Source of the DNA: an uncultured Armatimonadia bacterium
GTDB lineage: Bacteria > Armatimonadota > Zipacnadia > Zipacnadales > VGFC01
Assembly: GCA_964555935.1 (NCBI GenBank)
Contig: CAZKUN010000013.1
Location: 4,539-68,538 of the forward strand
Length of the DNA: 64,000 nucleotides
Reading direction: 5' to 3'
Each line of letters starts with the position of its first letter. Within the stretch, counting starts at the first letter, position 1. Under the pieces are notes generated by a model. That model was given only the letters and a program-made list of their open reading frames with translations, was not told where the DNA came from and made no database searches. Both the position numbers and the translations under genes were made by a program. Shown here piece by piece: positions 2,877 to 56,700 of this stretch.

Positions 2877-4247
2877 CTACGCTCCACACCAATTGACCAG
2901 TGACAGCGCGAGCGCCTTGGCGCCCGCGAGAATCTCATCGACGCTAATGCTCTCGCCGTCGGCGTGGGCCTGCCGGATGTCCGATGGCCCGAAGACGATG
3001 GTCGGGAGGTCGGCGAGCGCCTTGTACAGCCGCGCGTCGCAGCTCACGTTCCAGCCGTAGATGTCATTCTCGATCCCCGCGTTCTTGCAGGCCTCGTGCA
3101 CCGCGACCGGCAACGGGTGATCGGCTGGGATCTCGTACGCGTCGTTGTGCAGCTTGGGGAACTCCAGCGTGAAGTGCTCTTTCAGCCATTCGTCGTCCGT
3201 CGACATGATGGCGTCGAGCAGTTCCTTCCGGATGTCTGACATTCGCGCGTTGGGCAGGAAGCCGACGCCGCCCTCGAGCACGCACTTGTCCGAGACCATC
3301 GACGGCCAGCCGCCAGCCTCGATGGTGCCGATGCAGAGCTGGACGGGATTGTCGTAGCGCGCGAACAGCGGCTGGCCCTGGCTCGCGGCGATCAGACGCT
3401 CCTCATACTCGAGCATCAGCCGAATCGCTTCCATCATCTTCTCAATGGCGTTGACGCCCTCGTGGCGCCGGCCCATGTGAAGGCTCTTGCCGGTGGTGGT
3501 CGCGCGGAACCAGATCGCGCCGCGATTCGCGGGATGGATCTGCATATCCGTGCCTTCGAGGACGATCACGCCGTCAGCCTTGCAGCCCTGGCGGATCAGC
3601 GCCAACGCTCCGTTCCCGCCGACTTCCTCCTCGATCACAACCTGACACTCCACATCGCCCTTCAGTTGGATACCGAGGTCATCCAGCGCCCGCAGGGCCA
3701 GCAGCATCGTGACAATCTGCCCTTTGCAGTCGGTCGCGCCGCGGCCGATGATGCGATCGCCGTCGATGACGGGATCGAACGCCTTGTCCCAACCTCCGGC
3801 CGGCACGACGTCGCTGTGCGTCTGCAGGATCACGCTGCGTCCGCCGCCGGTCCCCTCGCGGCTGGCTACGAAGTTGTGGCGGCCGGCGTATGGTCCCTCG
3901 TTGTCGCCGTGGGAGTACTCCTCATCGTCAAATAGCGAGTCGGGGATCGGCCGATATTCGCCAGGCAATCCATGTTCCTTGAACAGCTCCATGACGCGGG
4001 CTTGAATGCCAGGCTCATTCCCTTGGATGCTGTCAAAGCGGATAAGCTCGGGAAGGGAACTGAAGATGAAATCGCGGTAACCGTCGATGGTCGTGGATAG
4101 CTGGGTCAGATCCGTATCCGCCACTTCGGGTGCGCTCCTCACGTGCTCGGGGCTGAAGACAGGTCCGAACGTTCCCCGCGCGAGGGGGCATTCCTTCCGA
4201 GGTCGGCTGATTATTGGCGAGGAAGCAGCGTTGGGAGGACTCAGCAT
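2877..4247 (-). CDS. M20-family metallopeptidase/deacylase (ArgE/DapE/acetylornithine deacetylase-like)
   Basis: HSDVVP, GRGATDCKGQ, VIEEEVGGNGA and GxIEAGG dimerisation-domain motifs are present. The exact start is uncertain; the first ~50 aa are non-conserved. Confidence 0.8.
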   Translation of the reverse strand: MLSPPNAASSPIISRPRKECPLARGTFGPVFSPEHVRSAPEVADTDLTQLSTTIDGYRDFIFSSLPELIRFDSIQGNEPGIQARVMELFKEHGLPGEYRPIPDSLFDDEEYSHGDNEGPYAGRHNFVASREGTGGGRSVILQTHSDVVPAGGWDKAFDPVIDGDRIIGRGATDCKGQIVTMLLALRALDDLGIQLKGDVECQVVIEEEVGGNGALALIRQGCKADGVIVLEGTDMQIHPANRGAIWFRATTTGKSLHMGRRHEGVNAIEKMMEAIRLMLEYEERLIAASQGQPLFARYDNPVQLCIGTIEAGGWPSMVSDKCVLEGGVGFLPNARMSDIRKELLDAIMSTDDEWLKEHFTLEFPKLHNDAYEIPADHPLPVAVHEACKNAGIENDIYGWNVSCDARLYKALADLPTIVFGPSDIRQAHADGESISVDEILAGAKALALSLVNWCGA

Positions 4248-5160: not shown

Positions 5161-5253
5161 AATCCCTGTAAGAGGGGCTTTAGCCCCGACGCCGTAGACG
5201 TCGGCACGGGCAGAAGCAACGGCGTCGGGGCTAAAGCCCCTCTTACAGGGATT
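5161..5253. repeat. 35-bp perfect inverted repeat (arms 5161..5195 and 5219..5253) flanking a 23-nt loop; each arm also contains the nested hairpin aggggc-ttta-gcccct
   Basis: Read directly: aatccctgtaagaggggctttagccccgacgccgt ... acggcgtcggggctaaagcccctcttacagggatt. It lies between convergent genes 4289..5071(+) and 5326..6765(-). It is related to the hairpin+CTACnnCGGCG repeat family seen elsewhere in the window. Confidence 0.8.
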
Positions 5254-5325: not shown

Positions 5326-6765
5326 CTACGCCTCGCTGATGCGCTTCAGCATGGCCGTCGAGCGTGGCCACTCCAGCTCAACCCCCTGTCCCACCAGCCT
5401 CGCCCGCAGTTCGTCTGTGGGGACCTCGCGTAGTGACACCTTCCGGTCTCGCGCGATCGCTGCGGCTGTGCCGGCGGCTTGGCCAAGCTGCATCATCGTG
5501 CGGGAGAGCCGACAACTCGATGCCGCGAGAGAGCTGAACCCGGCGGCGCGACACGCGATCAGCAGGTTCTCGGTACGCTTGGGCAGCAGGCAGCGATACG
5601 GAATGCCGTACGGCTGCTTCAGCTCCCCGCAACCATGCCCATGCCCCCCGTGCGTGTCCATGGCATGATCGGCGATCGCGACGATGTCGTCGTCCGTCTG
5701 CCCGCTCAGCCCGGCGAGCAGGTCGTGTTGCGTGAGCACCTTCTCGCAGACGATCCGGCGTGTCTCTCGCACTCCGAGGGCCGGCGCGATCCAGCTCCGT
5801 CGATAGCGCTGAAACTCGGGGAAGTTGACCTGGCTGTGGTGCCAGTGGGCAATGGACCGGCGCAGGCACTCCGCGTAAGCCGCTTCCGGTCCGAGCCGCA
5901 GGAACTCCTCTCCCTCCATCGTGGGGAGCACGTTTACGTTCCAGTCGCCGCACGGGTACTGCGTGACGCTCGCCCCCGGGAAGGATGCCCGCCACCAGCA
6001 GTCCTTCGGGACATCGGGCGGCAGGGCCTCGACGGACGGCTGACTGGTTGGCGTGATCCGATATATCAGCGTGATTCCATTCACGCGGTCGGTGGCTTCC
6101 TCGGGCGCGCCGGGCTCGCCGAACGCGTCCCTCCCCTCCTGGCCCATCATCTCCCCGCATCCGCAGGCCATTGCCAGCAGTCCGTCGCCCGTCGCGTCCA
6201 CGTAGACGTCCGCCTGCAAGGCGTTGCCACCATCAAGTCGGAGGTGAGCGATGCGCCCATCGCGCATGTCGGCATCGGCGAGGCCCGTGTCCGTGGCGAC
6301 GTCACACCGCCCCGTCTCGTCGAGCAACGCATGGACAACGGCGCGGTAGACATCGGGCTCAAACCCGACGCCGTGCCAGTGTTCGCGGACGAAGGCCTCG
6401 TCCTCAGCCATAGACCGCGCGCCGTGGCGGAGCAAGCTGTCAACGTACGAGCGGGTGTAATCGACCACCGCCTCGCCGCCCGGGTAGCGCTCTTCGCCGG
6501 GCCCGGGGCAAAGGCAGTGTCGACCAATCGTGTAGATGCCGACGGCTTGGGGGATTGGTCTGAGAGCGCGGTAGATGTCGAGCGGGATACCCGTTCCGCC
6601 GACGCCCGGCTCCCAGACGCTCACGCCGGCGCGCGTGGCGGTGCCGCCGATGACGGGCGCTTTCTCGACGAGGCAGACCGCAAGGCCCTCTCGCGCCGCC
6701 GCGAGCGCCGCGCCGATGCCCCCGCTTCCAGCCCCGATGACAGCGACATCATACTGACGTAACAT
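5326..6765 (-). CDS. FAD-dependent oxidoreductase (FAD_oxidored/PF12831-like)
   Basis: N-terminal dinucleotide-binding motif DVAVIGAGSGGIGAAL...EKAPVIGG, in a 479-aa protein. Confidence 0.8.
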   Translation of the reverse strand: MLRQYDVAVIGAGSGGIGAALAAAREGLAVCLVEKAPVIGGTATRAGVSVWEPGVGGTGIPLDIYRALRPIPQAVGIYTIGRHCLCPGPGEERYPGGEAVVDYTRSYVDSLLRHGARSMAEDEAFVREHWHGVGFEPDVYRAVVHALLDETGRCDVATDTGLADADMRDGRIAHLRLDGGNALQADVYVDATGDGLLAMACGCGEMMGQEGRDAFGEPGAPEEATDRVNGITLIYRITPTSQPSVEALPPDVPKDCWWRASFPGASVTQYPCGDWNVNVLPTMEGEEFLRLGPEAAYAECLRRSIAHWHHSQVNFPEFQRYRRSWIAPALGVRETRRIVCEKVLTQHDLLAGLSGQTDDDIVAIADHAMDTHGGHGHGCGELKQPYGIPYRCLLPKRTENLLIACRAAGFSSLAASSCRLSRTMMQLGQAAGTAAAIARDRKVSLREVPTDELRARLVGQGVELEWPRSTAMLKRISEA

Positions 6766-13896: not shown

Positions 13897-14082
13897 GTAG
13901 GACCTCCAACGGCCGTCGATGCGGTAGTGGATGTCTGAGATCAGCTCCGCCCGCCACCCTCGTCCCCACCCGCTTCGCCCAGCGGCGTGGCTCCACCTCG
14001 CCTTGGCCGTCCAGCGGGCGAGGCGTGAGCGAGGAACCGGTGGCGGGAACGCGGAACATGCATGCCCATGCCGTCCGTGTCC

Positions 14083-14160
14083 GCGGGTCGCCCGACCCGC
14101 GAGAACTCACCCGGGATTGGGCGTGCGGGTCGGGCGACCCGCAGGCACGAACGACCGGGG
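14083..14160. promoter_or_regulatory. Pair of 14-bp palindromes GGGTC-N4-GACCC (gggtcgcccgaccc and gggtcgggcgaccc) ~25 bp apart, upstream of the amidohydrolase operon; the second is followed by gcaggcacgaacgac
   Basis: Read directly in the 280-bp intergenic region. The same palindrome+tail is found at 51483..51512 and 62290..62330. This is a candidate operator or a REP-like element. Confidence 0.5.
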
Positions 14161-14176
14161 ATGGGGAGTTACGCCC

Positions 14177-15772
14177 ATGAGCCTGAGGCTGTTCGACGCC
14201 CACTGCTACCTCGGCCGGTTCAAGCACCTCGACGAGCGCTACTTCCACGCGCGTGAAGACTTGCTCGCGGAGATGGATCACTTTGGCATTGCCGAGGCGC
14301 TCGTTTGCGACACGCTATCGCGCGAGTTGGACCCTCGAGCCGGTAACCCTCGCATCGTGGATCTGTGCAGGGACGAGCCCCGCCTCCACCCGTCGTGGGC
14401 GCTGGCCCCGCCCGTGCAGTCGCTGCCGTTCCCGCTTGACGAGTTGCCCTCGGCCATGGCCGACGCGGACGTGCGGGCTGTCCGGCTGTTCCCCGGCCAC
14501 CTGGAATTCACGCTCGACGAGTGGTGCGTCGGTCCAATCCTGGAAGTGATGCAAGACATCCGCGTGCCGGTCCTCATCGACCCAACGCCGGCCCTCAAGG
14601 CGGCGGGGCGAGACCTCACCGACTGGGACGCGATGGTCCGGCTGTGCAAGGCATTCCCGGATCTACCGATCATCGCCGCCGAACAGCGGTGGTACTGGCG
14701 CGATCGCACGTTCTACCCCGCGCTGGAGGCCTGCGAGAATCTTCACCTCGAGCTGAGCGCGTTCTGGATGTTCCGCGGCATTGAGTTCGTCTGCCGGGAA
14801 TATGGGGCGCATCGATTGCTGTTTGGCACGAGGCTGCCGGTCCGAGACGCGGGGGCAACGGTGGCGCAACTCCAATACGCAGAGATCTCCGACGAGGAGA
14901 AGCAAGCCATCGCGGGGGACAATCTGCGCCAGATGCTCGACCTCGATCCCCAGCCGATCGAGCAGGTCGCGCCGGACCCCGGCCTCGGCACGTGGTACTC
15001 GGCAGTCCGGGCGGCCCAAGAACCCTTCGCGGGCGAGACGCTGGTCGACATCCACGCGCACATCGGCCCGGGCTCACCGTACTTTCTCCCGGATTCCGAA
15101 CCGGACCAACTCGTCCGCCAGATGGACCGACACGGCATCAGCAAGATGGTGAGCTTCGCCTTCGCCGGGATGAACGCGGACTGGGCCTGGGGCAACGACT
15201 TCGCGCACCAGGCGGCCTGCGATCACCCCGGCCGGATCCTGCCGCTCGCCCAAGTGAATCTGTGGGATGATGCGGAGATGACTCGCGAGATGGAGCGCTG
15301 CTGCGACGAATTCGGCTTCTGGGGCGTGAAGCTGCACCCTTGGTGGAACGAATACCCCGAGACGGGCGATCATGTCAGGCGGTGCTGCGAGTTCGTCAAC
15401 GATCGAAAGCTCATGTTGCTCAACCACCACTGGGGCCCGCCCACCGCCCTCGACGAGATCGCCAAGGACTGTCCGAACGCTCAGCTCATCGTCGGACACT
15501 TGGCTCTGGATGCCGAGTACGCGCGGGTGATCAATGAGAACGACAACGTGCACATCTGCACGTGCCTGCCGGTCCTGCGAGGCGAGGTCGAGCAAGCGGT
15601 GAAGCTGATCGACACGAGCAAAATCATGTTTGGCTCGGATGTCCCCGACCTGCCCATTCCCATCGGCTTCGGATCGATTCTCTACGCGAGGATCGATGAC
15701 GAGGCGAAGCGCGCCATCATGGGCGTAAACGCTCAGCGACTACTGGAGAAGATCACATGCGCGAAAACATGA
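14177..15772 (+). CDS. Tandem-fused double amidohydrolase-2 (PF04909-like metal-dependent TIM-barrel hydrolase; sugar-lactonase/decarboxylase family)
   Basis: Two repeats each begin with a metal-binding motif (LFDAHCYLG and LVDIHAHIGPGSPYF) and carry C-terminal HxxW/D motifs. The start is reassigned to the ATG at 14177 (MSLRLFDAH), which has a GGAG RBS. The upstream part of track ORF 13931 overlaps repeat elements. Confidence 0.75.
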   Translation: MSLRLFDAHCYLGRFKHLDERYFHAREDLLAEMDHFGIAEALVCDTLSRELDPRAGNPRIVDLCRDEPRLHPSWALAPPVQSLPFPLDELPSAMADADVRAVRLFPGHLEFTLDEWCVGPILEVMQDIRVPVLIDPTPALKAAGRDLTDWDAMVRLCKAFPDLPIIAAEQRWYWRDRTFYPALEACENLHLELSAFWMFRGIEFVCREYGAHRLLFGTRLPVRDAGATVAQLQYAEISDEEKQAIAGDNLRQMLDLDPQPIEQVAPDPGLGTWYSAVRAAQEPFAGETLVDIHAHIGPGSPYFLPDSEPDQLVRQMDRHGISKMVSFAFAGMNADWAWGNDFAHQAACDHPGRILPLAQVNLWDDAEMTREMERCCDEFGFWGVKLHPWWNEYPETGDHVRRCCEFVNDRKLMLLNHHWGPPTALDEIAKDCPNAQLIVGHLALDAEYARVINENDNVHICTCLPVLRGEVEQAVKLIDTSKIMFGSDVPDLPIPIGFGSILYARIDDEAKRAIMGVNAQRLLEKITCAKT

Positions 15773-17085: not shown

Positions 17086-18237
17086 ATGAGCATGTGGCAT
17101 TACTTCGACGACGCAGATCTAGCCGCAGTGAAGGAAGTGCTCGACCGAGGCGTTCTGGGGAGCATCGGTGACGCACCCGCGACACGGGGCTTGGAGGCGG
17201 CGTTCTGCGAGGAATTCGGCTCAGCCCACGCGCTTGGCGTCTGCAATGCGATGGCCGGGCTGCACTCAGCCGTCGCTGCGTCCGGAGCGGGAGCCGGCGA
17301 TGAAGTCGTTGTCGATTCGCTGGTGGGATTCGGCGCTTTGGCGGTGCTGTTCAACAACGCGATCCCTGTGTTTGCAGACGTCCGTCGCGACACTCACACG
17401 ATGGATGTCGAGTCGCTCCGCTCGCGGATCTCAGAGCGCACGAAGGCGATCATCGTCACCCAGCTCTGGGGCCTGATCGCCGACATGGACGAGATCATGG
17501 CGATCGCCAAGGAGCACGATCTCCTCGTCATCGAGGACTGCGCGCACGCGATCTACGCCACGTACAACGGCAAGTATGCGGGCACGATTGGCGACGTCGG
17601 CGTCTTCAGTTTCCAGGAGAGCAAGCAGCTCTCGACCGGCGATGGTGGGATCGTCCTGTTCCAGGACCCGGATGTCGGCGAACGGATCAATGATATGGTC
17701 ACCTTCGGCACGATGCCCTCGCGGGTGGCGCTGAACTACCGCATCACCGAGGTGATGTCGGCTATCGCTAAGGTGCAACTTGGGAAGACGCCCGGGTACG
17801 TCGATATCTGCGTCCGCTCCGCCAACCAGTTCAACGACGCCGTCGCGGGCAGCCCTTTGATCGCGCCCCAGATCACGCCCGAGGGCCGCGTGAACACCTA
17901 CCATCTGTGGGCGGCCACGTACGAGGGCGACGATCAGGGCCTGCCGTACGATGACTTCCAAAGAATCGCCGCCGAGCAGGGCGTCAACTTCATGTGGCGC
18001 TACATCCAGCAGGCGCCGTACCTGTTCGACGTCATCCGCGAGCCGGTTGCCTTCGGTCGCGGATGCCCGACCCAGTGCCCGCTGCGGGCGCGAGATATCA
18101 GCTACGATGAGGGCACGTGCCCGACGGCGGAGCTGATCATGGATCGGATAATGCTGGCCTACACGGGCGGCGACCCAGACGCCAACGCAGTGACCGCGGA
18201 CGGATTGCGCAAGGCGCTCGAGATCGCCCAAGGTTAG
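17086..18237 (+). CDS. DegT/DnrJ/EryC1/StrS-family PLP-dependent sugar aminotransferase (second paralogue)
   Basis: VIEDCAHAIYA and the PLP-lysine motif FSFQESKQLSTGDGG are present. The gene sits 6 bp after the previous gene, with a GGAGAG RBS. Confidence 0.9.
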   Translation: MSMWHYFDDADLAAVKEVLDRGVLGSIGDAPATRGLEAAFCEEFGSAHALGVCNAMAGLHSAVAASGAGAGDEVVVDSLVGFGALAVLFNNAIPVFADVRRDTHTMDVESLRSRISERTKAIIVTQLWGLIADMDEIMAIAKEHDLLVIEDCAHAIYATYNGKYAGTIGDVGVFSFQESKQLSTGDGGIVLFQDPDVGERINDMVTFGTMPSRVALNYRITEVMSAIAKVQLGKTPGYVDICVRSANQFNDAVAGSPLIAPQITPEGRVNTYHLWAATYEGDDQGLPYDDFQRIAAEQGVNFMWRYIQQAPYLFDVIREPVAFGRGCPTQCPLRARDISYDEGTCPTAELIMDRIMLAYTGGDPDANAVTADGLRKALEIAQG

Positions 18238-28025: not shown

Positions 28026-28117
28026 TCGTGGAAACTCAGACGTCCAGTTCCCCTGCTAAAGGCGCTCTCACGGGGGTAGCGCAACGCGAGGCGTGGGAGG
28101 GGCATGAGGGGGGGTGA

Positions 28118-30718
28118 GTGAACCTGCCTGGCATGACACGCACGCTTGGGTTCTCAATCGGTTTGGCCCTCCTCTCAGGCACCATCGTCGCGCAAGGAGA
28201 TGTGGTCCCGGTCGGCCCAGGGGCGGGCTGGGTCGAGGCGGTCACGGGCGCCTTGGAGGCGGGGGCGACCGTCCGCCTGCAGGCGGGGCGCTATGAACTG
28301 ACCGAGCCGATTCGGCTGACTCCCGAGCACTCCGGAACCATCGAAGCGGCGCCGGGCGCCGAGGCGATCGTCAGCGGCGGCGTCATCATCGATGGTTGGG
28401 AGATCGACGGCGACCGGTGGACCGTCACGCTGCCGGAGGTCGCGTCGGGCGACTGGCACTTCGCCCAGCTCTGGGCCAATGGCGAACGGCGGTACCGGCC
28501 GCGCTGGCCCGAGGATGGCTACAGCTACATCGCCAGGTCGGCTCCCTCGACGGAGGAGGGGCAAGGGCACGACCGGTTCCGCTTCGACGCGGGTGACATC
28601 CGCGCGGACTGGCAGAACCTCAACGATGTCGAGATGCTCATCTTCCACAGTTGGAGCATGTCGCGGATCCCGCTGGCGAGCGTCGATGAGGACCAGCGCG
28701 TGGTGACGCTGGCCGGGCGGACGTGGAACAGCCAGATCGGCGCGCTCGCCCCGAGAAAACGCTACATCGCCGAGAACGTGCTGGAGGCGCTGAACGAGCC
28801 CGGCGAGTGGTACCTCGACCGTGGCACGGGCCTGTTGACGTACATCCCGAAGCCCGGCGAGACACCCGACAACACGGAGATCATCGTCCCGCGGGCCGAG
28901 CAACTCGTAAGCATCGTCGGCGATCCGGAGATGGGGATGGCGGTCAGTGACATCACCATCAGGGGGATTACCTTCGAACACGCGAACGTCACCGTTCCCG
29001 AGACGGGCTACTGCGTCGCGCAGGCGGAGGTGGGCGCGCGAAGCACCAATGGCAAGAGCCCGTTTGGATCGGCGATTGAGCTGAGCGGCACGCGGGACTG
29101 CGTCATTGAGGGTTGCGTCGTCCGGCACGTGGGCTACTACGCGGTTGAGTTTGGCGTCTCATGCCACGAGAACGTGTTGGGGTTTTGTGAGGTGTGGGAC
29201 GGGGGGGGGGGGGGGGTGAAGCTCGGGACAGCCAATCGCTACCCCGAGGGCGATGGGCGGAATGCCGCGGGCAACGTGGTCGAGGACTGCGCGATGGCCC
29301 ATGGCGGGCGCATGCACCCGGCGGCAGTGGGCGTGTGGATCGGCAACTCGGGCGATAACCAGGTCATCCACAACGACATTCACGACTTCTACTACACGGG
29401 CGTCTCGGTCGGGTGGAACTGGAGCTGGGGCTACAGCCCGGCGAAGAATAACCTCGTCAGCCATAACCACATCTACGATATCGGCCAGCAACGATTGAGC
29501 GACCTCGGCGGGATCTACACGCTCGGCGAATCAGAGGGCACGGTGCTGAGTTACAACCGCATCCACGACGTGTCGCGCGTGGCGTATGGCGGCCTCGGCA
29601 TCTACCACGACCAGGCGACGATGGGTATTCTGAGTGAGAACAACATCGTGTATCGGACGCAAGACAGCGGCTTCAACGTTCACTGGGGCAAGGACAACAC
29701 CGTCCGGAACAACATCTTCGCGTTCGGCGAGACCAGCCAGATCAATCCCGGTCGCACGGACCTCACCGGACCGATTACGTTCGAGCGGAATCTCATCGTC
29801 TGGGACGGCGGATCGGTGCATCGGGCGCGGGGCATTCGGGATGATTTCGCCTCGGACAGAAACCTGTATTGGCCGGGCGCGGCGGATGGAGAGATGACCT
29901 TCGATGGTGATCTGTCGCTGGACGAGTGGCAGGATGCCGGACGGGACGTGAACTCCATCGTCGCCGATCCGGGCTGCGCTGACCCGGCGAATGGTGACTT
30001 CACCCTCAAGCCGAATTCACCCGCGCTGGACATCGGCTTCGAGCCGATTGACGCGAGCGAGATTGGTCGCCAGGCGGAGACGCGAGATGTCGGCGACGTG
30101 CCTCACGCGTTCCCCGTGGCGGGGCCGCCGCCGCCGAAGCCGATTGCCGAGGACTTCGAGTTTGAGACGGTTGGCGCGCCGGCGGGCGGAGCGAAGACCT
30201 TCGAGAACAACGAGGCGGAGACGGCCCGCATCAGCGACGAACAGGCGGCATCTGGGAAGCAATCGCTGAAGCTGATGGACGGACCGGGCGAGCCGACGTT
30301 TAACCCGCACGTCTACTATGTGCCGGGCTTTGATGATGGGATGCTGCGAGGGGCGTTTGACATCATGCTTGAGCCGGGGGCGATGCTCTCGCACGAGTGG
30401 CGCGACCGGTCGGCGCCGTACAAGGTCGGCGCATCGATCCGGATCGACGCGGATGGAATGCTCCTGGCGGGCCAGCAGGAGCTGATGCAGCTTCCGCACG
30501 GTGAGTGGATACATGTGGAGATCACGAGGGGTATGGGCGTAGAAGCAACGGCGACGTTTGAGCTGAGCGTGACCTTGCCGGGCGAAGCACCGCACGTGTT
30601 CGAGGGTCTTCCATCGGATCCCGAGTGCACCGAACTGCATTGGCTGGGATGGGTGGCGGGGGCGGTGGCGCCGGTGGCGATCTACATCGACAACATCATG
30701 CTGGCACCCGCTGAGTGA
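28118..30718 (+). CDS. Secreted right-handed parallel beta-helix repeat protein (pectin-lyase fold) with C-terminal beta-sandwich domain
   Basis: Signal peptide present. Repeated NxxxN/asparagine-ladder segments are seen (NNIFAF, HNDIHDF, NHIYDIG, NRIHDV). The coding sequence contains an in-frame G16 tract (VWDGGGGGVKLG). Confidence 0.8.
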   Translation: MNLPGMTRTLGFSIGLALLSGTIVAQGDVVPVGPGAGWVEAVTGALEAGATVRLQAGRYELTEPIRLTPEHSGTIEAAPGAEAIVSGGVIIDGWEIDGDRWTVTLPEVASGDWHFAQLWANGERRYRPRWPEDGYSYIARSAPSTEEGQGHDRFRFDAGDIRADWQNLNDVEMLIFHSWSMSRIPLASVDEDQRVVTLAGRTWNSQIGALAPRKRYIAENVLEALNEPGEWYLDRGTGLLTYIPKPGETPDNTEIIVPRAEQLVSIVGDPEMGMAVSDITIRGITFEHANVTVPETGYCVAQAEVGARSTNGKSPFGSAIELSGTRDCVIEGCVVRHVGYYAVEFGVSCHENVLGFCEVWDGGGGGVKLGTANRYPEGDGRNAAGNVVEDCAMAHGGRMHPAAVGVWIGNSGDNQVIHNDIHDFYYTGVSVGWNWSWGYSPAKNNLVSHNHIYDIGQQRLSDLGGIYTLGESEGTVLSYNRIHDVSRVAYGGLGIYHDQATMGILSENNIVYRTQDSGFNVHWGKDNTVRNNIFAFGETSQINPGRTDLTGPITFERNLIVWDGGSVHRARGIRDDFASDRNLYWPGAADGEMTFDGDLSLDEWQDAGRDVNSIVADPGCADPANGDFTLKPNSPALDIGFEPIDASEIGRQAETRDVGDVPHAFPVAGPPPPKPIAEDFEFETVGAPAGGAKTFENNEAETARISDEQAASGKQSLKLMDGPGEPTFNPHVYYVPGFDDGMLRGAFDIMLEPGAMLSHEWRDRSAPYKVGASIRIDADGMLLAGQQELMQLPHGEWIHVEITRGMGVEATATFELSVTLPGEAPHVFEGLPSDPECTELHWLGWVAGAVAPVAIYIDNIMLAPAE
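29201..29216 (+). repeat. Homopolymeric G16 tract inside the beta-helix CDS (encodes Gly5)
   Basis: Read directly: gac gggggggggggggggg tgaag. Confidence 0.9.
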
Positions 30719-33764: not shown

Positions 33765-33797
33765 GGGCGCGATAAATCGCGCCCCTACGATTGGCGG
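33765..33797 (+). repeat. Copy of dispersed hairpin repeat (gggcgcgat-aaa-tcgcgccc + ctacgattggcgg)
   Basis: Hairpin + CTAC..GGCGG tail. It overlaps the stop codon of the convergent sulfatase gene. Confidence 0.7.
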
Positions 33798-35041
33798 GGC
33801 GGGACGGCGAGTTCGGCGTCGAGGCCGGCGTCGGATTGCTGGGCCATCCAGTCATCGAGGAGGGCGCGGAGGGCGGTGAGCGCGTGGGTGGGGTCGTCGG
33901 CGAGGTTGGTTAGCTCCCACGGGTCGGCGCGAAGGTCGTAGAGTTCCTCAGCCGGGCGCCGTTGGTGCAGCGCCACGCGTTGCGCTGCAAAGTCGTCCGA
34001 CTTTGCCTTCTCCACCCATGATCGACAGAGCCGACCGTCCTCGTGTGGATTGCCCTCCGGGGGGTGGGTCATGATGTTCGTGAACTCGCCACCATGGTTG
34101 AGGTTGCGGATGTACTTGTGGGTCTCCGTGCGGACGGAACGGATGGGGAACACTGAGCCTGCGATGATCCCGTTCGTCGTGTGGGCGCCGTAGATGACGT
34201 CGCGGTGCGTGTCCGCATCGCCCAAGAGCACGGGCAAGATGCTCCGGCCGTCGATATCGGTCGGAGGATCGCCGCCCGCGATCTCGATGCACGTCGGCAC
34301 TACGTCGGCGAAGCTGACCATGGCGTCGGTGATGCTGCCCGGCGCGATTCTCCCGGGCCAGCGCGCGATGAAGGGCACGCGAAGTCCGGCCTCGTAGCAG
34401 GACCACTTGGCGAAGATCCCGTAACCGTGATCGCTCGCGTAGATGAAGAGCGTGTCGTCAGTCAGACCTCGCCGGTCGAGGGCTGAGAGCGCCTCGCCGA
34501 CCTCGCGGTCGCACTTCTCGATGTCGGTGTAGTAGTCGGCTTGCGTCTGGCGCATCTCGGGGGTGTCGACCTGGAACGGGTGGATCGGCACCTCGTCAGG
34601 GGAGAAGCCACCACCCTCGTGGGGCGTGTGAGGCTGGTTGGATGCGATGACGAGGCAGAACGGATCCCCCCCCGCATCATCGAGGAAACCAGGCACGTCA
34701 CGTTGGGCGATGTACTCGAAGGGGAACGCGGAGGCCGGCGCGATGTGGCGTTTTTCAGCGAGCGCGACGCGGTAATCGAGAGGTTGGAGGTAGTGAGGCA
34801 ATGACCGCGTGCCATCGAACACGCGGCCATGATTCATGTGGCAACCGTTTCGGTGGGGGAAGAGCCCGGTGTACATGCACGATCGGCTCGGCGCGCACAT
34901 GGCGGTCGGCGTGAAGGCGCGATTGAACATCATGCCATCGGATGCCAGAGAGTCGATGTTAGGCGTGCGGATGCTTTCGTTGCCGTAGCACCCGGTGTCA
35001 GATGTGCTGTGATCGTCCGACAGGAAGATGACGATGTTCAT
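33785..35041 (-). CDS. Cys-type (formylglycine) sulfatase, no signal peptide
   Basis: Signature MCAPSRSCMYTG (CxPSR), N-terminal IVIFLSDDH, and YASDHG motifs. Confidence 0.85.
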   Translation of the reverse strand: MNIVIFLSDDHSTSDTGCYGNESIRTPNIDSLASDGMMFNRAFTPTAMCAPSRSCMYTGLFPHRNGCHMNHGRVFDGTRSLPHYLQPLDYRVALAEKRHIAPASAFPFEYIAQRDVPGFLDDAGGDPFCLVIASNQPHTPHEGGGFSPDEVPIHPFQVDTPEMRQTQADYYTDIEKCDREVGEALSALDRRGLTDDTLFIYASDHGYGIFAKWSCYEAGLRVPFIARWPGRIAPGSITDAMVSFADVVPTCIEIAGGDPPTDIDGRSILPVLLGDADTHRDVIYGAHTTNGIIAGSVFPIRSVRTETHKYIRNLNHGGEFTNIMTHPPEGNPHEDGRLCRSWVEKAKSDDFAAQRVALHQRRPAEELYDLRADPWELTNLADDPTHALTALRALLDDWMAQQSDAGLDAELAVPPRQS

Positions 35042-39949: not shown

Positions 39950-41953
39950 GTGCGCATCCTGGATTTCATCACACACCCACCATTCCAGAGCGAGCTGTGC
40001 AAGACCGGGCATGAGTTCGTGCTCGCGGCGAGCGAGTGCTGGGACCACTGGGACGTCAGCCTGAGGCCGCTGCCTGGCAACGCGTCAGTTGTCTCCGAGA
40101 TCGACCCCGAAGGACTCGACTTGGCGATCGTCGCGACGCGCGAGCAATACGTGCGGGCGGCGCGCCTGGACATTCCCGTCATCTTATTGAGCCACACAAT
40201 CATGCACCCATGGGATCGGGAGTTCTTCGCCGCTCTGCCCGATCATGTGGAGATGGTCTACGTAAGCGACCACAAGCGCGCGACGTTCGGGGACCTCGGC
40301 CAGAGGGGCCGGACCATCCGCCTGGCGGCGGACGCTGACGAGGATTTCACCGGCTACTCCGGCGCGGACGCCCGGATTCTCAACGTGACAAACCGGTTCT
40401 CGCAGCAGGGGGACCGAGGCTATGACCTGTATCGGCGCCTGACCGAGGGGTTGCCGGTGCAGGTCATCGGGCATCATAACGACCCGATACCGGGGGCGCG
40501 CGCCGCGACCGATCTCGACGACTTGCGGCAGCTGTATCGCACGAATCGCGCGTACCTGAACACGGACCCCCAGGGGCGATTGCACCTGGCAACGCTCGAG
40601 GCGATGGCCACGGGGATGCCGCTGGTCTCGCCCCCGATCGCGGAGTTGATGCCATACGTTGACGACGGAGTCAACGCGTTCGTTAGCACCGACGAGGGTG
40701 CGCTCCGCGACGCCCTGGAGGAGCTTCTCGAGGACGAGGAGCTAGCGCAGCGTGTCGGCGAGGCGGGACGCGCGATCGTCCGGACCCACTTCGGGATCGA
40801 TCGCTTCCTGCGCGAATGGTCCGAGGCCATTGGCGACGTCGCGGATCGACGCGGCAAGAGCGCCGGCCGCGGATCGCCGCTTCGCCCGCGCCGCGCGGGG
40901 GACGATTCGGGGCTGCGCGTGGCGATCAATGTCGGCCTGCTCGGAACGATCAAGACCGGCATCGGCCAGCACGCCGCGAACCTGGTGGAGGGTCTCGCCG
41001 CGACGGACGGGCCGAACTCGTATCATCTGATCGTGGGCACGTCATCCGTGGACAAGCTGCCCACCGGCCACAACCTGCACCCGCTGCTCGTCCGCTCAGG
41101 CGACGAGATGTGGGAAGAGACAGGACTGCCGTCGGTGCTGGAGGAATGCCGGGCGGATGTATATCACAGCCCCGCATTTGGTATCCCGATCGTGAAACCA
41201 TGCCCGTGTGTGGCGACGGTTCACGACTGCATCCCGAAGCTATTCCCCGAGCACGCGCCCCCGTTTCTCAGGCGTTTCTTCGACGATTGGGCGCCGACTT
41301 GGATGAAACTCGCCGACCACCTGATCGCAGTGTCAGAGCACACCAAGCACGACATCGCGCATCTGTATGGGGTGTCCGAGGACAAGATCACGGTCATCTA
41401 TCAGGCGAGCCCCAGCCGCCGGCGAGTTGATGATGAAGAAGCGATCTCCGACGTGAAGCGGCGGCTGGGCATTCCCGGGCCATACGTTCTCTATGTCGGG
41501 CGCATCGAGCTGCGGAAGAACATCGCAGGCATGATCGATGCGTTCCGGCTATTGCGAGCACGGGGGGACTTTGATGGGACCCTCGTGCTCGCCGGGCCGC
41601 GGGACCCCGAGCCTCACGATCCTGAAGGGGTGTTGCCGCCGGAGGGCGAGTACGGCGACATCATCGTGCCGGGCTTCGTCGCGGAGGACGACCTCTCGGG
41701 CTTGTATTCGGGGGCGCAGGCGTTCTGCTTCCCGTCCTTCTACGAGGGTTTCGGGCTGCCCGTCCTCGAGGCGCTGGCCTGCGGGGTACCGGTCGTGACA
41801 TCCAACGTGTCATCGCTTCCTGAGGTCGGCGGCGACGCGGCCATCTACGTGAACCCACACGACATCGAAGACATGGCGGACGGCATGAGCCGTGCCATTT
41901 CCGACACCCAGCTCCGGGGGGGAGCTGGTCCGGCGCGGGCTCGCGCAAGCTAG
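39950..41953 (+). CDS. Two-module GT4-family glycosyltransferase, C-terminus apparently truncated by a frameshift at a G7 run (would extend to 42020 in the other frame)
   Basis: The N-terminal module has a partial Glycos_transf_1-like domain. The C-terminal module is a full GT4 with EX7E-like EGFGLPVLEALACGVPVV. After ggggggg (41916..41922), the alternative frame encodes a canonical GT4 tail (ELVRRGLAQASRFTAEDAARKTIEVYEKAARS). Confidence 0.75.
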   Translation: MRILDFITHPPFQSELCKTGHEFVLAASECWDHWDVSLRPLPGNASVVSEIDPEGLDLAIVATREQYVRAARLDIPVILLSHTIMHPWDREFFAALPDHVEMVYVSDHKRATFGDLGQRGRTIRLAADADEDFTGYSGADARILNVTNRFSQQGDRGYDLYRRLTEGLPVQVIGHHNDPIPGARAATDLDDLRQLYRTNRAYLNTDPQGRLHLATLEAMATGMPLVSPPIAELMPYVDDGVNAFVSTDEGALRDALEELLEDEELAQRVGEAGRAIVRTHFGIDRFLREWSEAIGDVADRRGKSAGRGSPLRPRRAGDDSGLRVAINVGLLGTIKTGIGQHAANLVEGLAATDGPNSYHLIVGTSSVDKLPTGHNLHPLLVRSGDEMWEETGLPSVLEECRADVYHSPAFGIPIVKPCPCVATVHDCIPKLFPEHAPPFLRRFFDDWAPTWMKLADHLIAVSEHTKHDIAHLYGVSEDKITVIYQASPSRRRVDDEEAISDVKRRLGIPGPYVLYVGRIELRKNIAGMIDAFRLLRARGDFDGTLVLAGPRDPEPHDPEGVLPPEGEYGDIIVPGFVAEDDLSGLYSGAQAFCFPSFYEGFGLPVLEALACGVPVVTSNVSSLPEVGGDAAIYVNPHDIEDMADGMSRAISDTQLRGGAGPARARAS

Positions 41954-48303: not shown

Positions 48304-48415
48304 TGGTCGGCACCTCCGTGGTGGGTGAGTGCTTCGCCCATCATCCGGGCGGACACCTTCTCCGTTGCGGTCCGAGCCGGCGGGTGTTAGTGTATGGGTG
48401 AGGAGGCGTTTGCCG

Positions 48416-50228
48416 ATGATTCCGCTCATTGCCCTCGCGCTGCTACCCGTGGCGTTGCCTGCCGCTGAGCTTCCCCTGCCGCCCGGCGACACGATCTCGG
48501 GGCCGTGGGTTGTGAAGCTGTTCCTGGATGATGGCGATCCGACAAGCCTTGGGGAAGCGGCGATTATCCAACTGGGTGACGACGCGGAGGTCGGTCGGAC
48601 GCTTACTATCGGGCCGTGGTGGCGGGGCAACTGGTCAGCACGCGTCCAGCATGTCGAGAACCTCCCAGTTGAGCCGATCGTCGCGCGCGGGATGTACAGA
48701 ACCGATGGCCTGCTCGCGCTCATGGCGGGCGGGAGGGTGGAGTATTTCGACACCGCCGGCAAGCGCGTCGGCATGATGCCGTTCGCGCTGGCCGCCGAGG
48801 ATGAATGGACGCCGTTCGCTTTCAGGATCGACAAGTTCCCGCCAGGCGCAGAGAGCATGCAGCTCGCCTTCGGACTGCGGACCCACACCTCGGGGCGGGT
48901 GCAGTTCGCCAGACTCGGATACGACGCCGCGGGCCCGCATCCCCTGTCCGGCATGGCCGGCCCGGTCATCACGCGGCCTCGCCCGCCAGTCGGTTCTGAG
49001 GCCACCGGGTTCTTCCGCGTGGAGAAGACGGATGGCTCGTGGTGGCTGGTCGATCCCGATGGGCGCCCGTTCTACTCGTTGGCAACCGACCCACCTTCCC
49101 CCCCGTTCGGACGATGACCTCATCGCGAACTGCAGTCGGTATGTCGATCAACTGCGCGGTTGGGGTTTCACGGGGATCGCCGGCTGGGCGAGCGCGACGA
49201 CGTACGCGAAGCACAATGATGTGATGCTCGAACAGGGCAAGCCCACGTTCGCGCTTTTCAAGGTCATCAACTTCCACGACGCCGGCAAGTACGGCGAGTT
49301 CGACATGCTGACCGATCGCGATGGCAACCAGAAGTCCGGCGAGCACGGTTTCCCGGATCCGTTCGACCCGCGCTTCGAGGTGACGGCCTACAAGAAAGCT
49401 GCGGCGACGGTGGAGTCGCTGGCGGACCGGCGGGACGTCATCGCATGGTTCGTCGATAACGAAATGAGCTTCAGCGAGTTGTATCGGTACGTCTGGAGCG
49501 AGCACTGTGGCGAGGCGCTCTTGAAGCACTTGCGGGGGAAGTATGAGACGATCGGAGCCCTCAACGAGCGATGGGGAGCGGGGTTTGCGGATTGGGATGC
49601 GTTACGGGCTCAGAGGCCCGCGCCCCTCATGCCCAAGGGGCCGATGTATGATGACCTTGTGGCCTTCGAGCGCGTCCTGGTGAAACGGTATGTCGATATC
49701 AGCATCGCGGCGATCCGCGCGGTCGACGCGAACCACCTCATCGCCTCGAACCGGTTTAACATGGGCGGCCATGAGGCGTGGATGCGGACCATCGACCTCG
49801 CCTCGGCCTATGACATCGTGGCGTGCAACTTGTATCCCTCGAACCAGGAGCCGGGCGTGGGGAGGGCGGGCTTGCAGGTGCTGCGCGAGGTCGCGAGACG
49901 GACCGGCCGTCCGATGATCATGGGTGAGTGGAGCGTTCCGGCGATGGACAGCGGGCTGTATGAGATGCGCAAGGCGAAGCTGGACTGGTCATTCCCGCAG
50001 ACCGTGCCGACGCAGGAGATCCGCGCCGCGCAGGCCGCTCGGATCGCGGCTGATTACTTCAACGAGCCCTACATGGTCGGCGCGCACTGGTTCATCTATC
50101 GAGACTTCGACAGCGAGAAGCGCGAGGCGAACCGTGGCTTGGTCAGGAGCGACGGCGCGCCATACGAAGCGCTGACGGAAGCGCTGACCGACGTTCACGC
50201 GTCGATCGCTGACCACATCTCGCGGTAG
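48416..50228 (+). pseudogene. Secreted clan GH-A-like glycoside hydrolase interrupted by a frameshift at a C7 run (49098..49104); two ORF pieces 48416..49117 and ~49100..50228
   Basis: Signal peptide MIPLIALALLPVALPAAELP. The coding sense continues across frames (…FFRVEKTDGSWWLVDPDGRPFYSLATD | PPSP… then …DDDLIANCSRYVDQLRGWGFTGIAGW…). The C-terminal piece carries a GH-A-like motif GAHWFIYRDF…NRGLV. Confidence 0.65.
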
Positions 50229-51639: not shown

Positions 51640-53706
51640 ATGGTTGCTCACCATTGGTTGCTCGTGCTGGCGCTCGCGCTGCTTGCCGCTAGCGGCAGCG
51701 CGGCCGAACCGCGGCGCGACGTGTTTGTCGACTGCAAGGCTGAACCGGGCGGCGATGGTAGCCGCGAGCTTCCGTACGCCACAGTCCAGGAGATGGTCGA
51801 CCAGCACGACGCGGACTGGGGCCAGGTCTTCCTGCAGCCCGGCACGTATCGCGAGGATGTCAACATCCACCGGGGGCGCTTCTGGTTCTTCCCCGCTCAG
51901 CAGTATGGCGTGCATATCGAGGGCTCGATGACCGTGCGGATGCCCGGCACGAAGATCCGCGGGATGATCCTCCGCTCCGAGGGCAGCGCGATCGTGCTGG
52001 CGGATGGCGCGAGCGGGTGCGAGGTTCAGCACTGTCGCATTGAGGCCGTCGGCGAAGGCGGCGCGGGGATCGAGATTGCGGGCAGCGACGTATCGGGCTG
52101 CTTGATTAACGGGAACGTGGTTGAGCTGGTCGAGGGCGGCGGCCGAGCGGGGATTCGCGTGGCCGTGCAGACGGGAGTCACCAGCAACCACATCGACCAT
52201 AACAAGATCGCCGGGTGCGAAGAGGGCATCGCTCTGCTCGCCGACGGCGGCACGGAGGATCAGGTCAACGTCGTCACGAGCAACCGGCTGTATGGGTGTG
52301 GGATCAGTGTTGAGCCCGAAGCCGGGGAGGTGACAGTCGCGTGGAACGAGATCGATGGGGAGCTGGACGCGGATCTCTACGCGGAGGCGACGGCGCAGCC
52401 TCACGAGCCTCGCACGGTCCGCGTGGCGTCCGACGATGAGCTGTCAGCGGCCGTCGCGGAATTGGGCCCCGGTGATGAAGTCATCCTGGCCGACGGCGAG
52501 TATGCCGAGACGCTGGAGATCCGCGCGGTGGGGACGCCGAAGGCGCGGATCACGATTCGAGCCGCGAATCCGCTGGGGGCGGTCGTGCGTGGCGCGGCAT
52601 GGACGCTGAGGCATGCGGCCTACGTGCGGATCGAGGGGCTTAGCTTCGTTGACGTGCCGGGCTCGGCCGTCATTTTGGGGGCCTACGCGCAGCACTGCGA
52701 GGTGGCCGACTGCCGGATATCCCGCGAGGCCGAGGGTGGGGGAGGGGCGATATCGGTCTCGGGGCCGTCCGCCAGCCACAACGTCTTCTGGGGCAACACG
52801 ATTCGCCTGAACCACGGCGGCGTCGGTATCCAGATCACCTGTCAGCGCTGGAACTGGCATCTCACGATGAGCGCCAATGACATCTCAGGATGCTACTATG
52901 GCATTCAGACTGGAGCCGGCTCGTACCCGACCGCTCCGCCGGGGTACCACCGCATCGAGGGCAACGAGTTGCACCACAACTGGAAAGAGGGCTTCCACAG
53001 CAAGACGACCGACAACATCATCCGCGGGAACCACGTGCATAACAACGATAGCTGCGGGATGACCACGCGCTACGGCTCGCGGAACGTGTTCGAGGGCAAC
53101 TGGATACACAGCAACAGCCGGGGAATGCGGCTGCACAGCAAGAGCCACTTCGTGGTGAACAACGTCATCTTCAACAACGGCGGGGATGGGATCTACCTCG
53201 GTTCGTGGCCCGGCGACAAGGAGGGCGAGTACCCTTACAGCTTCGAGCCCTACTACGAGCCGCCGCATGAGGTGTGGATTGCGAATAACACGATCGCCCA
53301 TAACAGCGGCGCGCCGATCTTCGCGGACAACGGGACGCAGGTGATGGCGCTTCGGAACATCCTGGTGGGCACGGGTGAAGACGCGCCGGGCGTGAAGTTC
53401 GCCGTCGGCGGCGTCGCGCGCCAGGTTGAGCAGAATCTGTATTGGCAGTGTCGCCCGCCGCTGCTGCGCGAGTACGAGGGCGGCGAATACGATGTTCTGG
53501 CGGATCCGCTGTTCGTGGATCCCGAGAACGGTGACTACCGCGCCGACCGCGACGGCCCGGCGTGGGATGTGTCCGCGATCGGCGACGCGTTTTGGGAGAT
53601 GCTGAGACTCAGCGTGCCGATGGCGGAGGCGCCGCCCAAGGAGCATATTGGCGCGCACTTGGGCCCGCCACCGGCGAGTCTCGCCGGTAAGGAGTCGGAC
53701 GAATGA
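51640..53706 (+). CDS. Secreted right-handed parallel beta-helix repeat protein (two pectin-lyase-fold modules)
   Basis: Signal peptide MVAHHWLLVLALALLAASGSAAEP. Repeated asparagine-ladder motifs (IRGNHVHNN, EGNWIHSN, VVNNVIFNN). The start at 51640 is preferred. Confidence 0.8.
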   Translation: MVAHHWLLVLALALLAASGSAAEPRRDVFVDCKAEPGGDGSRELPYATVQEMVDQHDADWGQVFLQPGTYREDVNIHRGRFWFFPAQQYGVHIEGSMTVRMPGTKIRGMILRSEGSAIVLADGASGCEVQHCRIEAVGEGGAGIEIAGSDVSGCLINGNVVELVEGGGRAGIRVAVQTGVTSNHIDHNKIAGCEEGIALLADGGTEDQVNVVTSNRLYGCGISVEPEAGEVTVAWNEIDGELDADLYAEATAQPHEPRTVRVASDDELSAAVAELGPGDEVILADGEYAETLEIRAVGTPKARITIRAANPLGAVVRGAAWTLRHAAYVRIEGLSFVDVPGSAVILGAYAQHCEVADCRISREAEGGGGAISVSGPSASHNVFWGNTIRLNHGGVGIQITCQRWNWHLTMSANDISGCYYGIQTGAGSYPTAPPGYHRIEGNELHHNWKEGFHSKTTDNIIRGNHVHNNDSCGMTTRYGSRNVFEGNWIHSNSRGMRLHSKSHFVVNNVIFNNGGDGIYLGSWPGDKEGEYPYSFEPYYEPPHEVWIANNTIAHNSGAPIFADNGTQVMALRNILVGTGEDAPGVKFAVGGVARQVEQNLYWQCRPPLLREYEGGEYDVLADPLFVDPENGDYRADRDGPAWDVSAIGDAFWEMLRLSVPMAEAPPKEHIGAHLGPPPASLAGKESDE

Positions 53707-56700
53707 TCGGGACCTGTCTGATTGCGTTGGTGGCGGGAGGGACAGTCGTGAATAGCCAGGAGTGGGACGAGCGACGGCAGCGAGACGAGGCGCTGTACGA
53801 GAGCCTGACGATCACGGCCGACGAGCTTCGGCCTGCCGCCGCGCGGACGGAGATCGTCGTCGACGGAGAGCCACGGGCGGTGATCTGTCACGCGGATTCG
53901 CCGGCGTGGTTTGAGGCGGCGACGGCGGCTCAGGAAGCGGTGCGGGACGCGACCGGCGTGGAGCTTCCGATGGTGACTGACCAGGAGCTGGGCGAGGACG
54001 ACCGCAATGTCATCTTGCTGGGGACCCTCGATAACAATAGCGTCGTCGCGCGGCTGTACCACAACTACTATGTCTGCCTGGACGCTGGCTACACCGGGCG
54101 AAACGGCTACGTGCTTCGCTCGGTCATCGATCCGTGGGGCGATGGGCGCGACACCATTCTTGTTGGAGGCTCGCACGCTGAGAGCACAGCCAGGGCGGCC
54201 GAGGTTTTCGGGGACATCGTAGCGCGTGAGGCTGCGCGAGCGGCTGAGGAGCTTGGGGAGATCGTGGCGGGCGAGGCCGAAAGGGATGCGCTCGAGTTGC
54301 CCCGGCTGATGGAACTGGAGTTCGATGCTCAGGACCGAGTTGAGCCCGCACGCGGGCCCGTGAAGCCGGAGGAGCGCGACAGCGCAATCGCCCGGGGACG
54401 CGAGTATTTCGCGAGCGCCGGGCGAGGGCGAAACGGGACATCCCAGCTCGTGAGATGGGGCGTGAGATACCATCGGACGGGTGACCCGCTGGCGCTTGAG
54501 GCCTACCGCGAGTTGATGCTGGCGATGCTGGAGTACTATGCCACGGACGAGACCATCAACGAGCAGGGAATGCGCCGGTATGACAACGACTTCCGCGATG
54601 CGTCGACCTTCACCGTCGCGATTACGTGGGACCTCGTTGAGGAGAGCGGCGCCTTCACGGATCAAGAGCGGCTCGACATCACCAACCTGATGATCCGGCT
54701 GGCGTTGGAGTGCGAGCTATACCAGGGCTGGGACCGGCCTGACAGCTACGAGAAGTGGAGCGCGAACGAAGACATCGTCCACAACCACAACACGTTCCCT
54801 GCGCTGGGCGCTTACTTTCTGGGCAACTACATGCTGCGTCACTATGGCCTCGCTCATGCCGAGAAGTGGCTGACCGTGGCGCATGGGATTTTCAACGGGC
54901 AGAAGCATGTCAGCAAGCCGCTGGAGGATGCGGCGGCGTACCAGTGGCTGCCGATTATCCACACGATGATCTACTCGTTGGCTGAGGGGGACACGACGTT
55001 CTTTGATGAGGGCCACGCCCGCGAGGCGGCCCAGGTCGCCATGATGGTGATGGACAACGCGGGATATCAGTCGGCGTTTGGCGATCACTCGGCGTACAAG
55101 GCGAGTTCGGGTATCAGTCAGATGCTGAAGCCGATTGCCTGGCATTACAAGGACCCCGAAATCCTGTGGATGGCGGGTCACGCAGCGGTCGAGGGCAGCT
55201 ACCTGCTCGGTCAGCGCTATAATGCGGACTTTGAGCCAGAGCCGCCGACATCGCACGCGGGGGTAACGGTCTCGAAGCTGCCGAAGCTGTGCTACGACTA
55301 CGCGGCGCGCAGCCCTCAGTACCCCACGGCGCCAAACGTCCCGTGGGAGGCGACCTTCGATAAGATCGCGCTGCGGGGCGGGATCGAGCGTGATGACGAG
55401 TACCTGTTGCTCGATGGATTTGGGCGCGGGACGCACATGCACTTCGACACCAACGCGATCATTCGCTATGCCGCCGGTGGCGAGCCGCTGCTGGTGGATG
55501 GCGAGTACATCAAGAACGCGCCGAAGTACCACAACTCGATGGTCATCATCCGCGACGGGCGCGCGGAGCTGACCCCGACCGTGGCGCGGCTTGTGGAGGC
55601 GAAGGGGGATGGCGGAACGGCCCACACGCGGAGCACGATCGAGGACTACAACGGGGCCGACTGGACTCGCGAGATCCTGTGGGTGAGGGGCGAGTATTTC
55701 GTGGTGTCCGATCTGATTACGGCTCGCGAGGCGGGAGACTACACGCTACGGTGCTGCTGGCGGCCATGGGGCGACACGTCGCTCGACGGGAGCGTGCTGA
55801 CGGTCGACCACAAGCCGATGCGGATGCAGATCGTCAACGCGGACGGGGCGAGTTGCCGCGTCGAGAAACTCAAGACGTCTGAGATGATGCCGATCAGCCG
55901 GCTGAGTCAGCAGGTGAGCGTGCGGCTGGAGGCCGGTGAGGAGTACCGGTTTGTGAACCTGGTCCATGCTGAGGCGGAGGGTGATGCGGTTGACGTGTCG
56001 ATCGCGCCGGTGGGGGACGGCACCTATGTCGTGACGGGCGCGGGCGGGGCGCAAGTGGTGACGCTGGGTGACAAGGCGGACATCAAGGATGTGGGTGGCG
56101 GCATTGCCGTGGCGCGCGTGCCGGTGGTCGCGCCGCGAGAGGACAAGGAAGGGCCGCCGTCGATGGAGCGCTCGTGGGATTTCACGGGCTTTGAGGCCGC
56201 GCCCGCACTTCTGCGTGTCGAGCGCGTCACGAGCAACGAGCCTCACAGCGGGCGGTACGGGCCGGTTGGGAAGCTCGTCGACGGCGAGTTCAGCTCATCG
56301 ATGAGTTCGGTCATGTGGCCGGCGGGCGTCACGCCGACCATCGTCGCCGAGCTGCCGGAGGAGGCCGAGATCAGCAGCGTCGTGTTGCGCGAGTGGCATA
56401 TGAACGAGGGGTGGGATGTCGGAGACCGTAGACTTCAGATCAGCAGCGACGGCTTCGACCAGGACGTCCGCGGGATCGACGCGCCGTTTGAGGAGGCCGG
56501 GACTCAGAGTTGGGGCGGCAACACGAACTCGATGTATGAGGTGAAGATCGGTCAGAGGGCGCGCCAGATCCGCCTGACTGTCTCGCCGGCGCGCGATGAC
56601 TCGAACGTCTACATCGCGGAGTTGCAGATCCATGGCACGGGTGAGGGCGTGATGCCGGAGATCCGGGCGGTCGCGACGGGCGACCTGACGGGCGACGGCG

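Follow-up and report, generated by a model that had tools for sequence, protein, structure and literature searches.

A 16-nucleotide guanine run in a GH141-like beta-helix gene of an uncultured Armatimonadota bacterium is very probably an error private to one assembly

The DNA analyzed here, referred to as the window, is a stretch of 64,000 nucleotides (nt) from contig CAZKUN010000013.1 of an uncultured Armatimonadota bacterium (NCBI assembly GCA_964555935.1). The window contains an open reading frame (ORF) for a glycoside hydrolase within which 16 consecutive G residues are recorded (G16). A first-pass annotation, made from the letters alone, had taken the gene to code for a secreted beta-helix protein and the tract for either a phase-variation switch or a sequencing error. 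The identification of the gene holds. The product matches Pfam Beta_helix (E 6e-15) and has an N-terminus, MNLPGMTRTLGFSIGLALLSGTIVAQG, that by eye resembles a signal peptide. It also scores 30.4 bits against the Pfam model GH141_M for the GH141 insertion domain (cut-off 27), and in the PDB it matches the parallel beta-helix 9RX2 (E 3.5e-47) and BT_1002/5MQP (E 7.5e-30). By its beta-helix core, its insertion domain and its similarity to BT_1002, the host gene is thus GH141-like. We found 1,919 homologues of the host protein at E <= 1e-10, and in an alignment of 42 sequences the Asp residues D361, D423, D462 and D498 are invariant. Near-identical proteins are labeled in the source databases as proteins of Armatimonadota bacterium metagenome-assembled genomes (MAGs). 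A scan of a genome collection, whose representative genomes do not include the species of the window, returned distant relatives only, with at most 47% identity and mostly from Armatimonadota. The ORF of the window starts at GTG 28118, and other annotations begin the gene at ATG 28133, giving a protein of 861 aa. The coordinates of the features are collected in Table 1.

G16 lies in frame, as the first-pass annotation had stated; a C stands before it at 29200 and a T after it at 29217. It supplies the codons of Gly362 to Gly366 and the first base of that of Val367, and the protein of the window reads ...CEVWDGGGGGVKLG... at this point. No other homopolymer in the 64 kb is longer than eight; the runners-up are one C8, two G7 and one C7. 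An independent-base model predicts about 0.0016 runs of 16 or more G, and the empirical probability that a G run is extended is about 0.23 per base. G16 is therefore non-random in this record. Five GGG codons in a row are also atypical, because GGG is a minority glycine codon in the gene (GGC 58, GGG 22). As written, the tract occupies codons 362-367 of an ORF of 866 codons, and a change of one base would switch the expression of the secreted gene.

To see how the tract reads elsewhere, the window was compared with 27 other public contigs of the organism, which together cover 49,906 of the 64,000 nt. Four of these carry the gene for a protein here called P0123, and the other 23 were fetched via four neighboring genes. 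P0123 is the second full-length member of the 90%-identity protein cluster of the window protein; a partial member, P0122 (HJN18516.1), comes from a different MAG, has one residue different elsewhere, and also reads LRDCELWDLGGGGV (D-L-G-G-G-G). Both P0123 and P0122 have ...NVLRDCELWDLGGGGVKLG..., and the window protein has ...NVLGFCEVWDGGGGGVKLG.... All four contigs that encode P0123 and cover the tract (L032-L035: NCBI GCA_002896335.2, ENA ERZ9811087, ENA ERZ23491564 and Logan SRR4465032) read TTGCGGGATTGTGAGCTGTGGGACCTGGGCGGGGGCGGGGTG, to be set against TTGGGGTTTTGTGAGGTGTGGGACGGGGGGGGGGGGGGGGTG in the window, at the same length. Their codons at the tract are GAC CTG GGC GGG GGC GGG GTG (D-L-G-G-G-G-V), and their longest G run is five. 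Over the 8.7 kb concerned, the differences from the window common to all four are eight substitutions, all within 29180-29212, and these eight are also the only positions in the 49,906 nt at which every covering contig contradicts the window. The remaining differences are private to single other contigs or in the minority, and many lie close to contig ends. Since there are no fixed differences outside 29180-29212, the window represents the same strain as the other assemblies; and since all eight private differences fall within 33 nt, ordinary strain divergence cannot account for the cluster.

The long homopolymer was thus found in neither the four other assemblies nor the protein of the separate MAG, and the version of the protein that the window encodes is encoded by one contig on record. 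No tract-length variants were seen among the assemblies, all five versions, including that of the window, being equally long. JGI metagenome contigs were also searched, the two flanks being kept constant around a free stretch of 25-50 nt; nothing matched, and so this collection yielded no further independent copies. Exact-protein look-ups gave no match for the window's own version, and likewise none for ORFs 13931..15772, 53703..57662 and 17086..18237; it appears that the window contig is unindexed, or that start codons differ.

The eight substitutions comprise five C>G, one T>G, one G>T and one A>T, so that six are to G and two to T, and there is no insertion or deletion. They cause the replacements R354G, D355F, L358V and L362G, together with two silent changes of GGC to GGG; D355F and L362G each result from two adjacent substitutions. 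In all eight cases the base of the window matches one lying 1-2 nt to the right in the consensus; on the left side such a match exists for four of eight. The changes are therefore clustered (eight in 33 nt), biased toward one base and, as described below, contrary to conservation. Three other origins were considered and rejected. A donor for gene conversion was not found, no second 30-mer bearing G16 being present in the window even at up to three mismatches, and a converted patch would in addition encode residues never seen in homologues. A diversity-generating retroelement or other targeted mutagenesis does not fit, because C, T, G and A were all hit, and not A only. An Illumina error arising from an inverted repeat or hairpin was discarded as well, the true 100-nt region folding no better than its shuffles (z = 0.48).

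Table 1. Features of the window discussed in the text. Positions are those of the window.
Feature	Position	Strand	Basis or nature
GH141-like right-handed beta-helix glycoside hydrolase coding sequence, signal-peptide-like N-terminus, 866 aa	28118..30718	+	Pfam, PDB relatives
G16 run as recorded; CTGGGCGGGGGCGGGG in the other assemblies, equal length	29201..29216	+	contig comparison
Eight window-private substitutions (consensus to window, in order: C>G, G>T, A>T, C>G, C>G, T>G, C>G, C>G)	29180, 29183, 29184, 29192, 29201, 29202, 29206, 29212	+	contig comparison
Consensus G-quadruplex motif GGGACCTGGGCGGGGGCGGGG, four G runs of at least 3, loops of 4, 1 and 1 nt	29196..29216	+	canonical pattern
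G7 in ORF 39950..41953, toward the 3' end of a gene for a two-domain GT4 glycosyltransferase	41916-41922	+	+1 frameshift
C7 at the overlap of ORFs 48329..49117 and 48801..50228	49098-49104	+	+1 frameshift
Shared break or N-gap positions	11742, ~17145-17204, 22684, 34249, 35250, 38517, 44057, ~50047-50104, 56770		

Conservation was read from an alignment of 42 sequences and from a set of 119 homologues, in the numbering of the window ORF. The tract aligns without gaps in the 42 sequences onto a conserved motif with the consensus C-E-L-x-D-L-G-A-G-G-V-K-I-G. Of the 119 homologues, 118 have D at position 361, which is hence near-invariant; 117 carry L, M, I or V at position 362, and none carries G; 93 have G at position 363; and at position 364, 105 have A and 12 have G. 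All of them share G365, and 118 share G366. The PDB relative 9RX2 reads M-G-G-G-G-I at the position of the tract. For the four residues private to the window, G, F, V and G, the homologues show 1, 0, 3 and 0 instances, against 5, 35, 75 and 93 for those of the other assemblies (R, D, L and L); neither F355 nor G362 is seen at all. The residues encoded by the tract are thus not dispensable; the site is a conserved D-[LM]-G-[AG]-G-G-[VI]-K. The first-pass annotation had proposed that a poly-Gly conserved in homologues, together with uniform reads of 16 G, would mark the tract as an ordinary linker. The homologues give a divided picture: four of the five glycines are genuine and belong to a conserved D-L-G-[AG]-G-G, but Gly362 replaces a hydrophobic residue. 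We conclude that the four glycines are plausible for the lineage, whose closest relatives have D-L-G-G-G-G, and that Gly362 is, on the evidence of the alignment, aberrant.

These comparisons lead us to the view that, very probably, G16 arose as an error of base calling or assembly, is confined to this record and does not belong to the organism. The changes are found in one assembly only, preserve length, run against the conservation of the family, and each copy a neighboring base. The sequence at 29180-29216 is almost certainly CGGGATTGTGAGCTGTGGGACCTGGGCGGGGGCGGGG in truth, encoding ...LRDCELWDLGGGGVKLG... with its D-[LM]-G-[AG]-G-G-[VI]-K turn; k-mers for the two alleles are GGGACGGGGGGGGGGGGGGGGTGAAG and GGGACCTGGGCGGGGGCGGGGTGAAG. 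Of the possibilities raised in the first-pass annotation, a sequencing artefact is thus the favored one, but in another form: an error in homopolymer length, by insertion or deletion, had been envisaged, and what we find instead are length-preserving substitutions toward G.

The sequence context is error-prone. The consensus has 22 G in 37 nt and contains a canonical G-quadruplex (G4) motif, one of nine in the window (five on the plus and four on the minus strand), which would be the likely trigger of the miscalls. Reads synthesized on the G-rich plus-strand template would proceed from right to left in the coordinates of the window. If phase were lost at the motif, an interrupting C, T or A would be called as the base just read. 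That the errors start within the motif, reach about 16 nt leftward and repeat the previous base would fit such dephasing. At low coverage the erroneous k-mers could then have been taken into the contig: the names of the sister contigs give a coverage of about 7-8x, and because coverage is this low, a few bad reads could dominate the local consensus. We infer quadruplex dephasing, rather than a fault of the assembler or polisher, as the physical cause, and likewise infer the platform. The rate of single-nucleotide mismatches in Illumina data is reported to be 2.39-fold higher at G4 motifs (PMC10519405). Stalling at a G4 in the template shifts the phase of the signal as soon as the motif is reached (PMC8516911), and under stabilizing conditions the base calls themselves are altered, an effect that G4-seq exploits (PMC10079223).

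Several points weigh against this account. In standard Illumina buffers, G4s usually lower base quality without causing mismatches (PMC8516911). The G-rich or G4 sites at 28095, 30651, 31477, 33864 and 49853 are covered by other assemblies and show no discrepancy, so that G-richness alone cannot explain the failure at this site. The evidence for the error comes from assembled contigs. The assemblies compared may not be independent, and may even share reads with the window contig: L034 is labeled SAMN05944812, and L032 and L035 may stem from the same sample or reads. If reads are shared with the window contig, assembly or polishing, and not the sequencer, is at fault. Whether or not reads are shared, our conclusion of a lack of G16 in the organism would stand, and the protein of the separate MAG, P0122, supports it.

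A different technical cause would be an artefact of two-color Illumina chemistry, in which the absence of signal is called as G, either through a chimeric join by poly-G tails or through transient signal loss. Six of the eight changes are to G. In the usual two-channel coding, the loss of one dye channel turns C into G and A into T, which would match the five C>G changes and the one A>T. However, the run is internal and of exact length, with flanks collinear to the base, and a chimeric join is disfavored because both the length and the interspersed A, C and T bases are preserved. A or C is retained at 29190, 29199 and 29200 inside the affected stretch, and with the G>T at 29183 signal would have been gained, not lost. 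We consider two-color chemistry an unlikely source of the tract; a "dark = G" artefact of this kind or a polishing error remain as alternative technical causes. Alternatively, the tract could be an ordinary, real poly-glycine linker that happens to use GGG codons and has no switching role. Gly363, Gly365 and Gly366 are indeed conserved, and the closest relatives (P0002, P0004 and P0123) have four consecutive Gly residues. The other assemblies, however, use GGC, GGG, GGC and GGG after CTG and not five GGG codons, Gly362 is not conserved (L, M, I or V in 117 of the 119 homologues), and the four accompanying changes upstream (29180-29192) would be left unexplained. A simple linker thus seems extremely improbable.

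A further possibility is a real allele of a subpopulation, in which a burst of substitutions copying neighboring bases, for example by error-prone synthesis with transient misalignment at a fork stalled by a quadruplex, turned CTGGGCGGGGGCGGGG into G16. Such a tract would be hypermutable by slipped-strand mispairing, as the first-pass annotation noted for tracts of this length, and would switch the secreted hydrolase on and off. We regard an allele of this kind as very unlikely. If a real allele were present, this would be an uncultured Armatimonadota bacterium with a phase-variable carbohydrate-active enzyme. With the tract in frame, the enzyme would be "on", and a homopolymer of 16 nt would be unstable in any bacterium, as contingency loci illustrate. 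Dislocation mutagenesis (transient misalignment) also predicts the copying of neighboring bases, and the genome does have real, reproducible frameshifting tracts, at 41916 (G7) and 49098 (C7). Against this, the allele requires eight substitutions in 33 nt, versus none fixed in the other 49.9 kb. None of the 119 homologues has F355 or G362, and with G362 the conserved hydrophobic residue beside the near-invariant D361 is lost. No other assembly or MAG carries G16, there is no variation in tract length, and the version is encoded by a single contig. One property of a contingency locus, the position inside an ORF, is present, and three, namely reproducible presence in the genome, length polymorphism among assemblies and dispensability of the encoded residues, are not. 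A phase-variation switch is thus unsupported: four assemblies read CTGGGCGGGGGCGGGG at equal length, and a separate MAG protein has DLGGGG.

The first-pass annotation had also grouped G16 with the G7 and C7 tracts as one pattern of homopolymer anomalies. Both tracts exist and behave as +1 frameshifts with respect to the ancestral frame, but they are not one phenomenon with G16. G7 is identical, base for base, in all six contigs that cover it and C7 in all four (L036, L037, L042 and L043), the contigs compared carrying differing sample or assembly identifiers. Because they are identical in every other covering assembly, G7 and C7 are real frameshifts; and because they are reproduced elsewhere and G16 nowhere, there is no single homopolymer pattern in the window. 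The G7 gene lies in a cluster of at least six glycosyltransferase genes. As written, the tail of its product stops aligning to the paralogues at the tract. Removal of one G (giving G6) yields a GT4 glycosyltransferase of 689 aa, the C-terminus of which, ...LRGELVRRGLAQASRFTAEDAARKTIEVYEKAARS, aligns to the ends of three downstream paralogues. Removal of one C from C7 fuses the two overlapping ORFs into a protein of 632 aa with a GH42-like domain and a signal-peptide-like start; the gene is called as two pieces in four other contigs as well. As a candidate site of gene decay or of true phase variation, the G7 tract is better than G16. In the same glycosyltransferase gene, contig L039 (ENA ERZ23491134, FUCH22-1) has a 7-bp deletion, CCGCGAA, at 40974-40980, which splits the product into 357 and 322 aa; this contig also has one single-nucleotide polymorphism, at 39027. 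The gene is thus disrupted in two different ways in the population. The longest genuine homopolymer of the window is the C8 at 34666-34673, which lies inside ORF 33785..35041 on the minus strand, keeps the frame and is identical in L036, the one other contig that covers it.

Around the beta-helix gene, the sister contigs have an unannotated gene for a protein of 553 aa on one side and, on the other, a GH16 gene followed by a gene for a PFL-like glycyl-radical enzyme. A second G-quadruplex-type motif, GGGAGGGGCATGAGGGGGGG, ending in G7, is found at 28095-28114, 4 nt upstream of GTG 28118 and 19 nt upstream of ATG 28133. It is identical in the other assemblies and probably overlaps the ribosome-binding site of the gene. 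Elsewhere, between ORFs 2877..4247 and 5326..6765, there is a perfect inverted repeat of 35 nt (5161-5195 and 5219-5253, with a spacer of 23 nt), each arm of which holds a small palindrome, GGGGCTTTAGCCCC; the repeat may act as a terminator or operator, or may represent a small mobile element. At the positions given in Table 1, contigs of several independent short-read assemblies end or contain N gaps while the window contig continues, which suggests repeats or drops in coverage at these places, or that the present record was assembled by another strategy. A short variable stretch (33940, 33942 and 33945) adjoins contig ends, including that of L034.

The value of these observations lies mainly in quality control, as a spurious homopolymer could pass for a contingency locus. 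In the deposited contig, and in its 861-aa protein product (P0001), four residues of a conserved GH141-like motif would be wrong, and for a striking homopolymer in a low-coverage MAG, comparison with sister assemblies is a cheap check. It also sets G7 and C7 apart from the artefact, as the better candidates for true biology.

How does the locus compare with known systems? The host protein matches in sequence both BT_1002 of Bacteroides thetaiotaomicron (5MQP), the founding GH141 enzyme, and 9RX2, which has hydrophobic-G-G-G-G-[VI] at the site, but identity to the two is low and the host protein is longer (866 aa), with a C-terminal extension of about 200 aa that has no Pfam match. Contingency loci include poly-G or poly-C tracts in the surface and glycosyltransferase genes of Neisseria, Haemophilus and Campylobacter. 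As written, G16 resembles them: it is a long run of G in the ORF of a carbohydrate-active protein that is secreted, and altering its length by one base would shift the frame. It differs from them in that it is absent from all other assemblies, shows no length polymorphism and lies in a conserved structural motif and not in a dispensable 5' region. The remaining comparison is with base-calling errors in a G4 context, on which the principle of G4-seq and G4-miner rests. Under standard buffers such sites usually suffer a loss of quality only. Here, by contrast, the error would have passed into a consensus contig, for which coverage must be very low or one-sided, and the other G4 motifs of the window are unaffected. 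Like errors of this class, however, it involves a true G4 motif and substitutions only, with putative miscalls that repeat a neighboring base, begin within the motif and run on for about 16 nt past one side of it.

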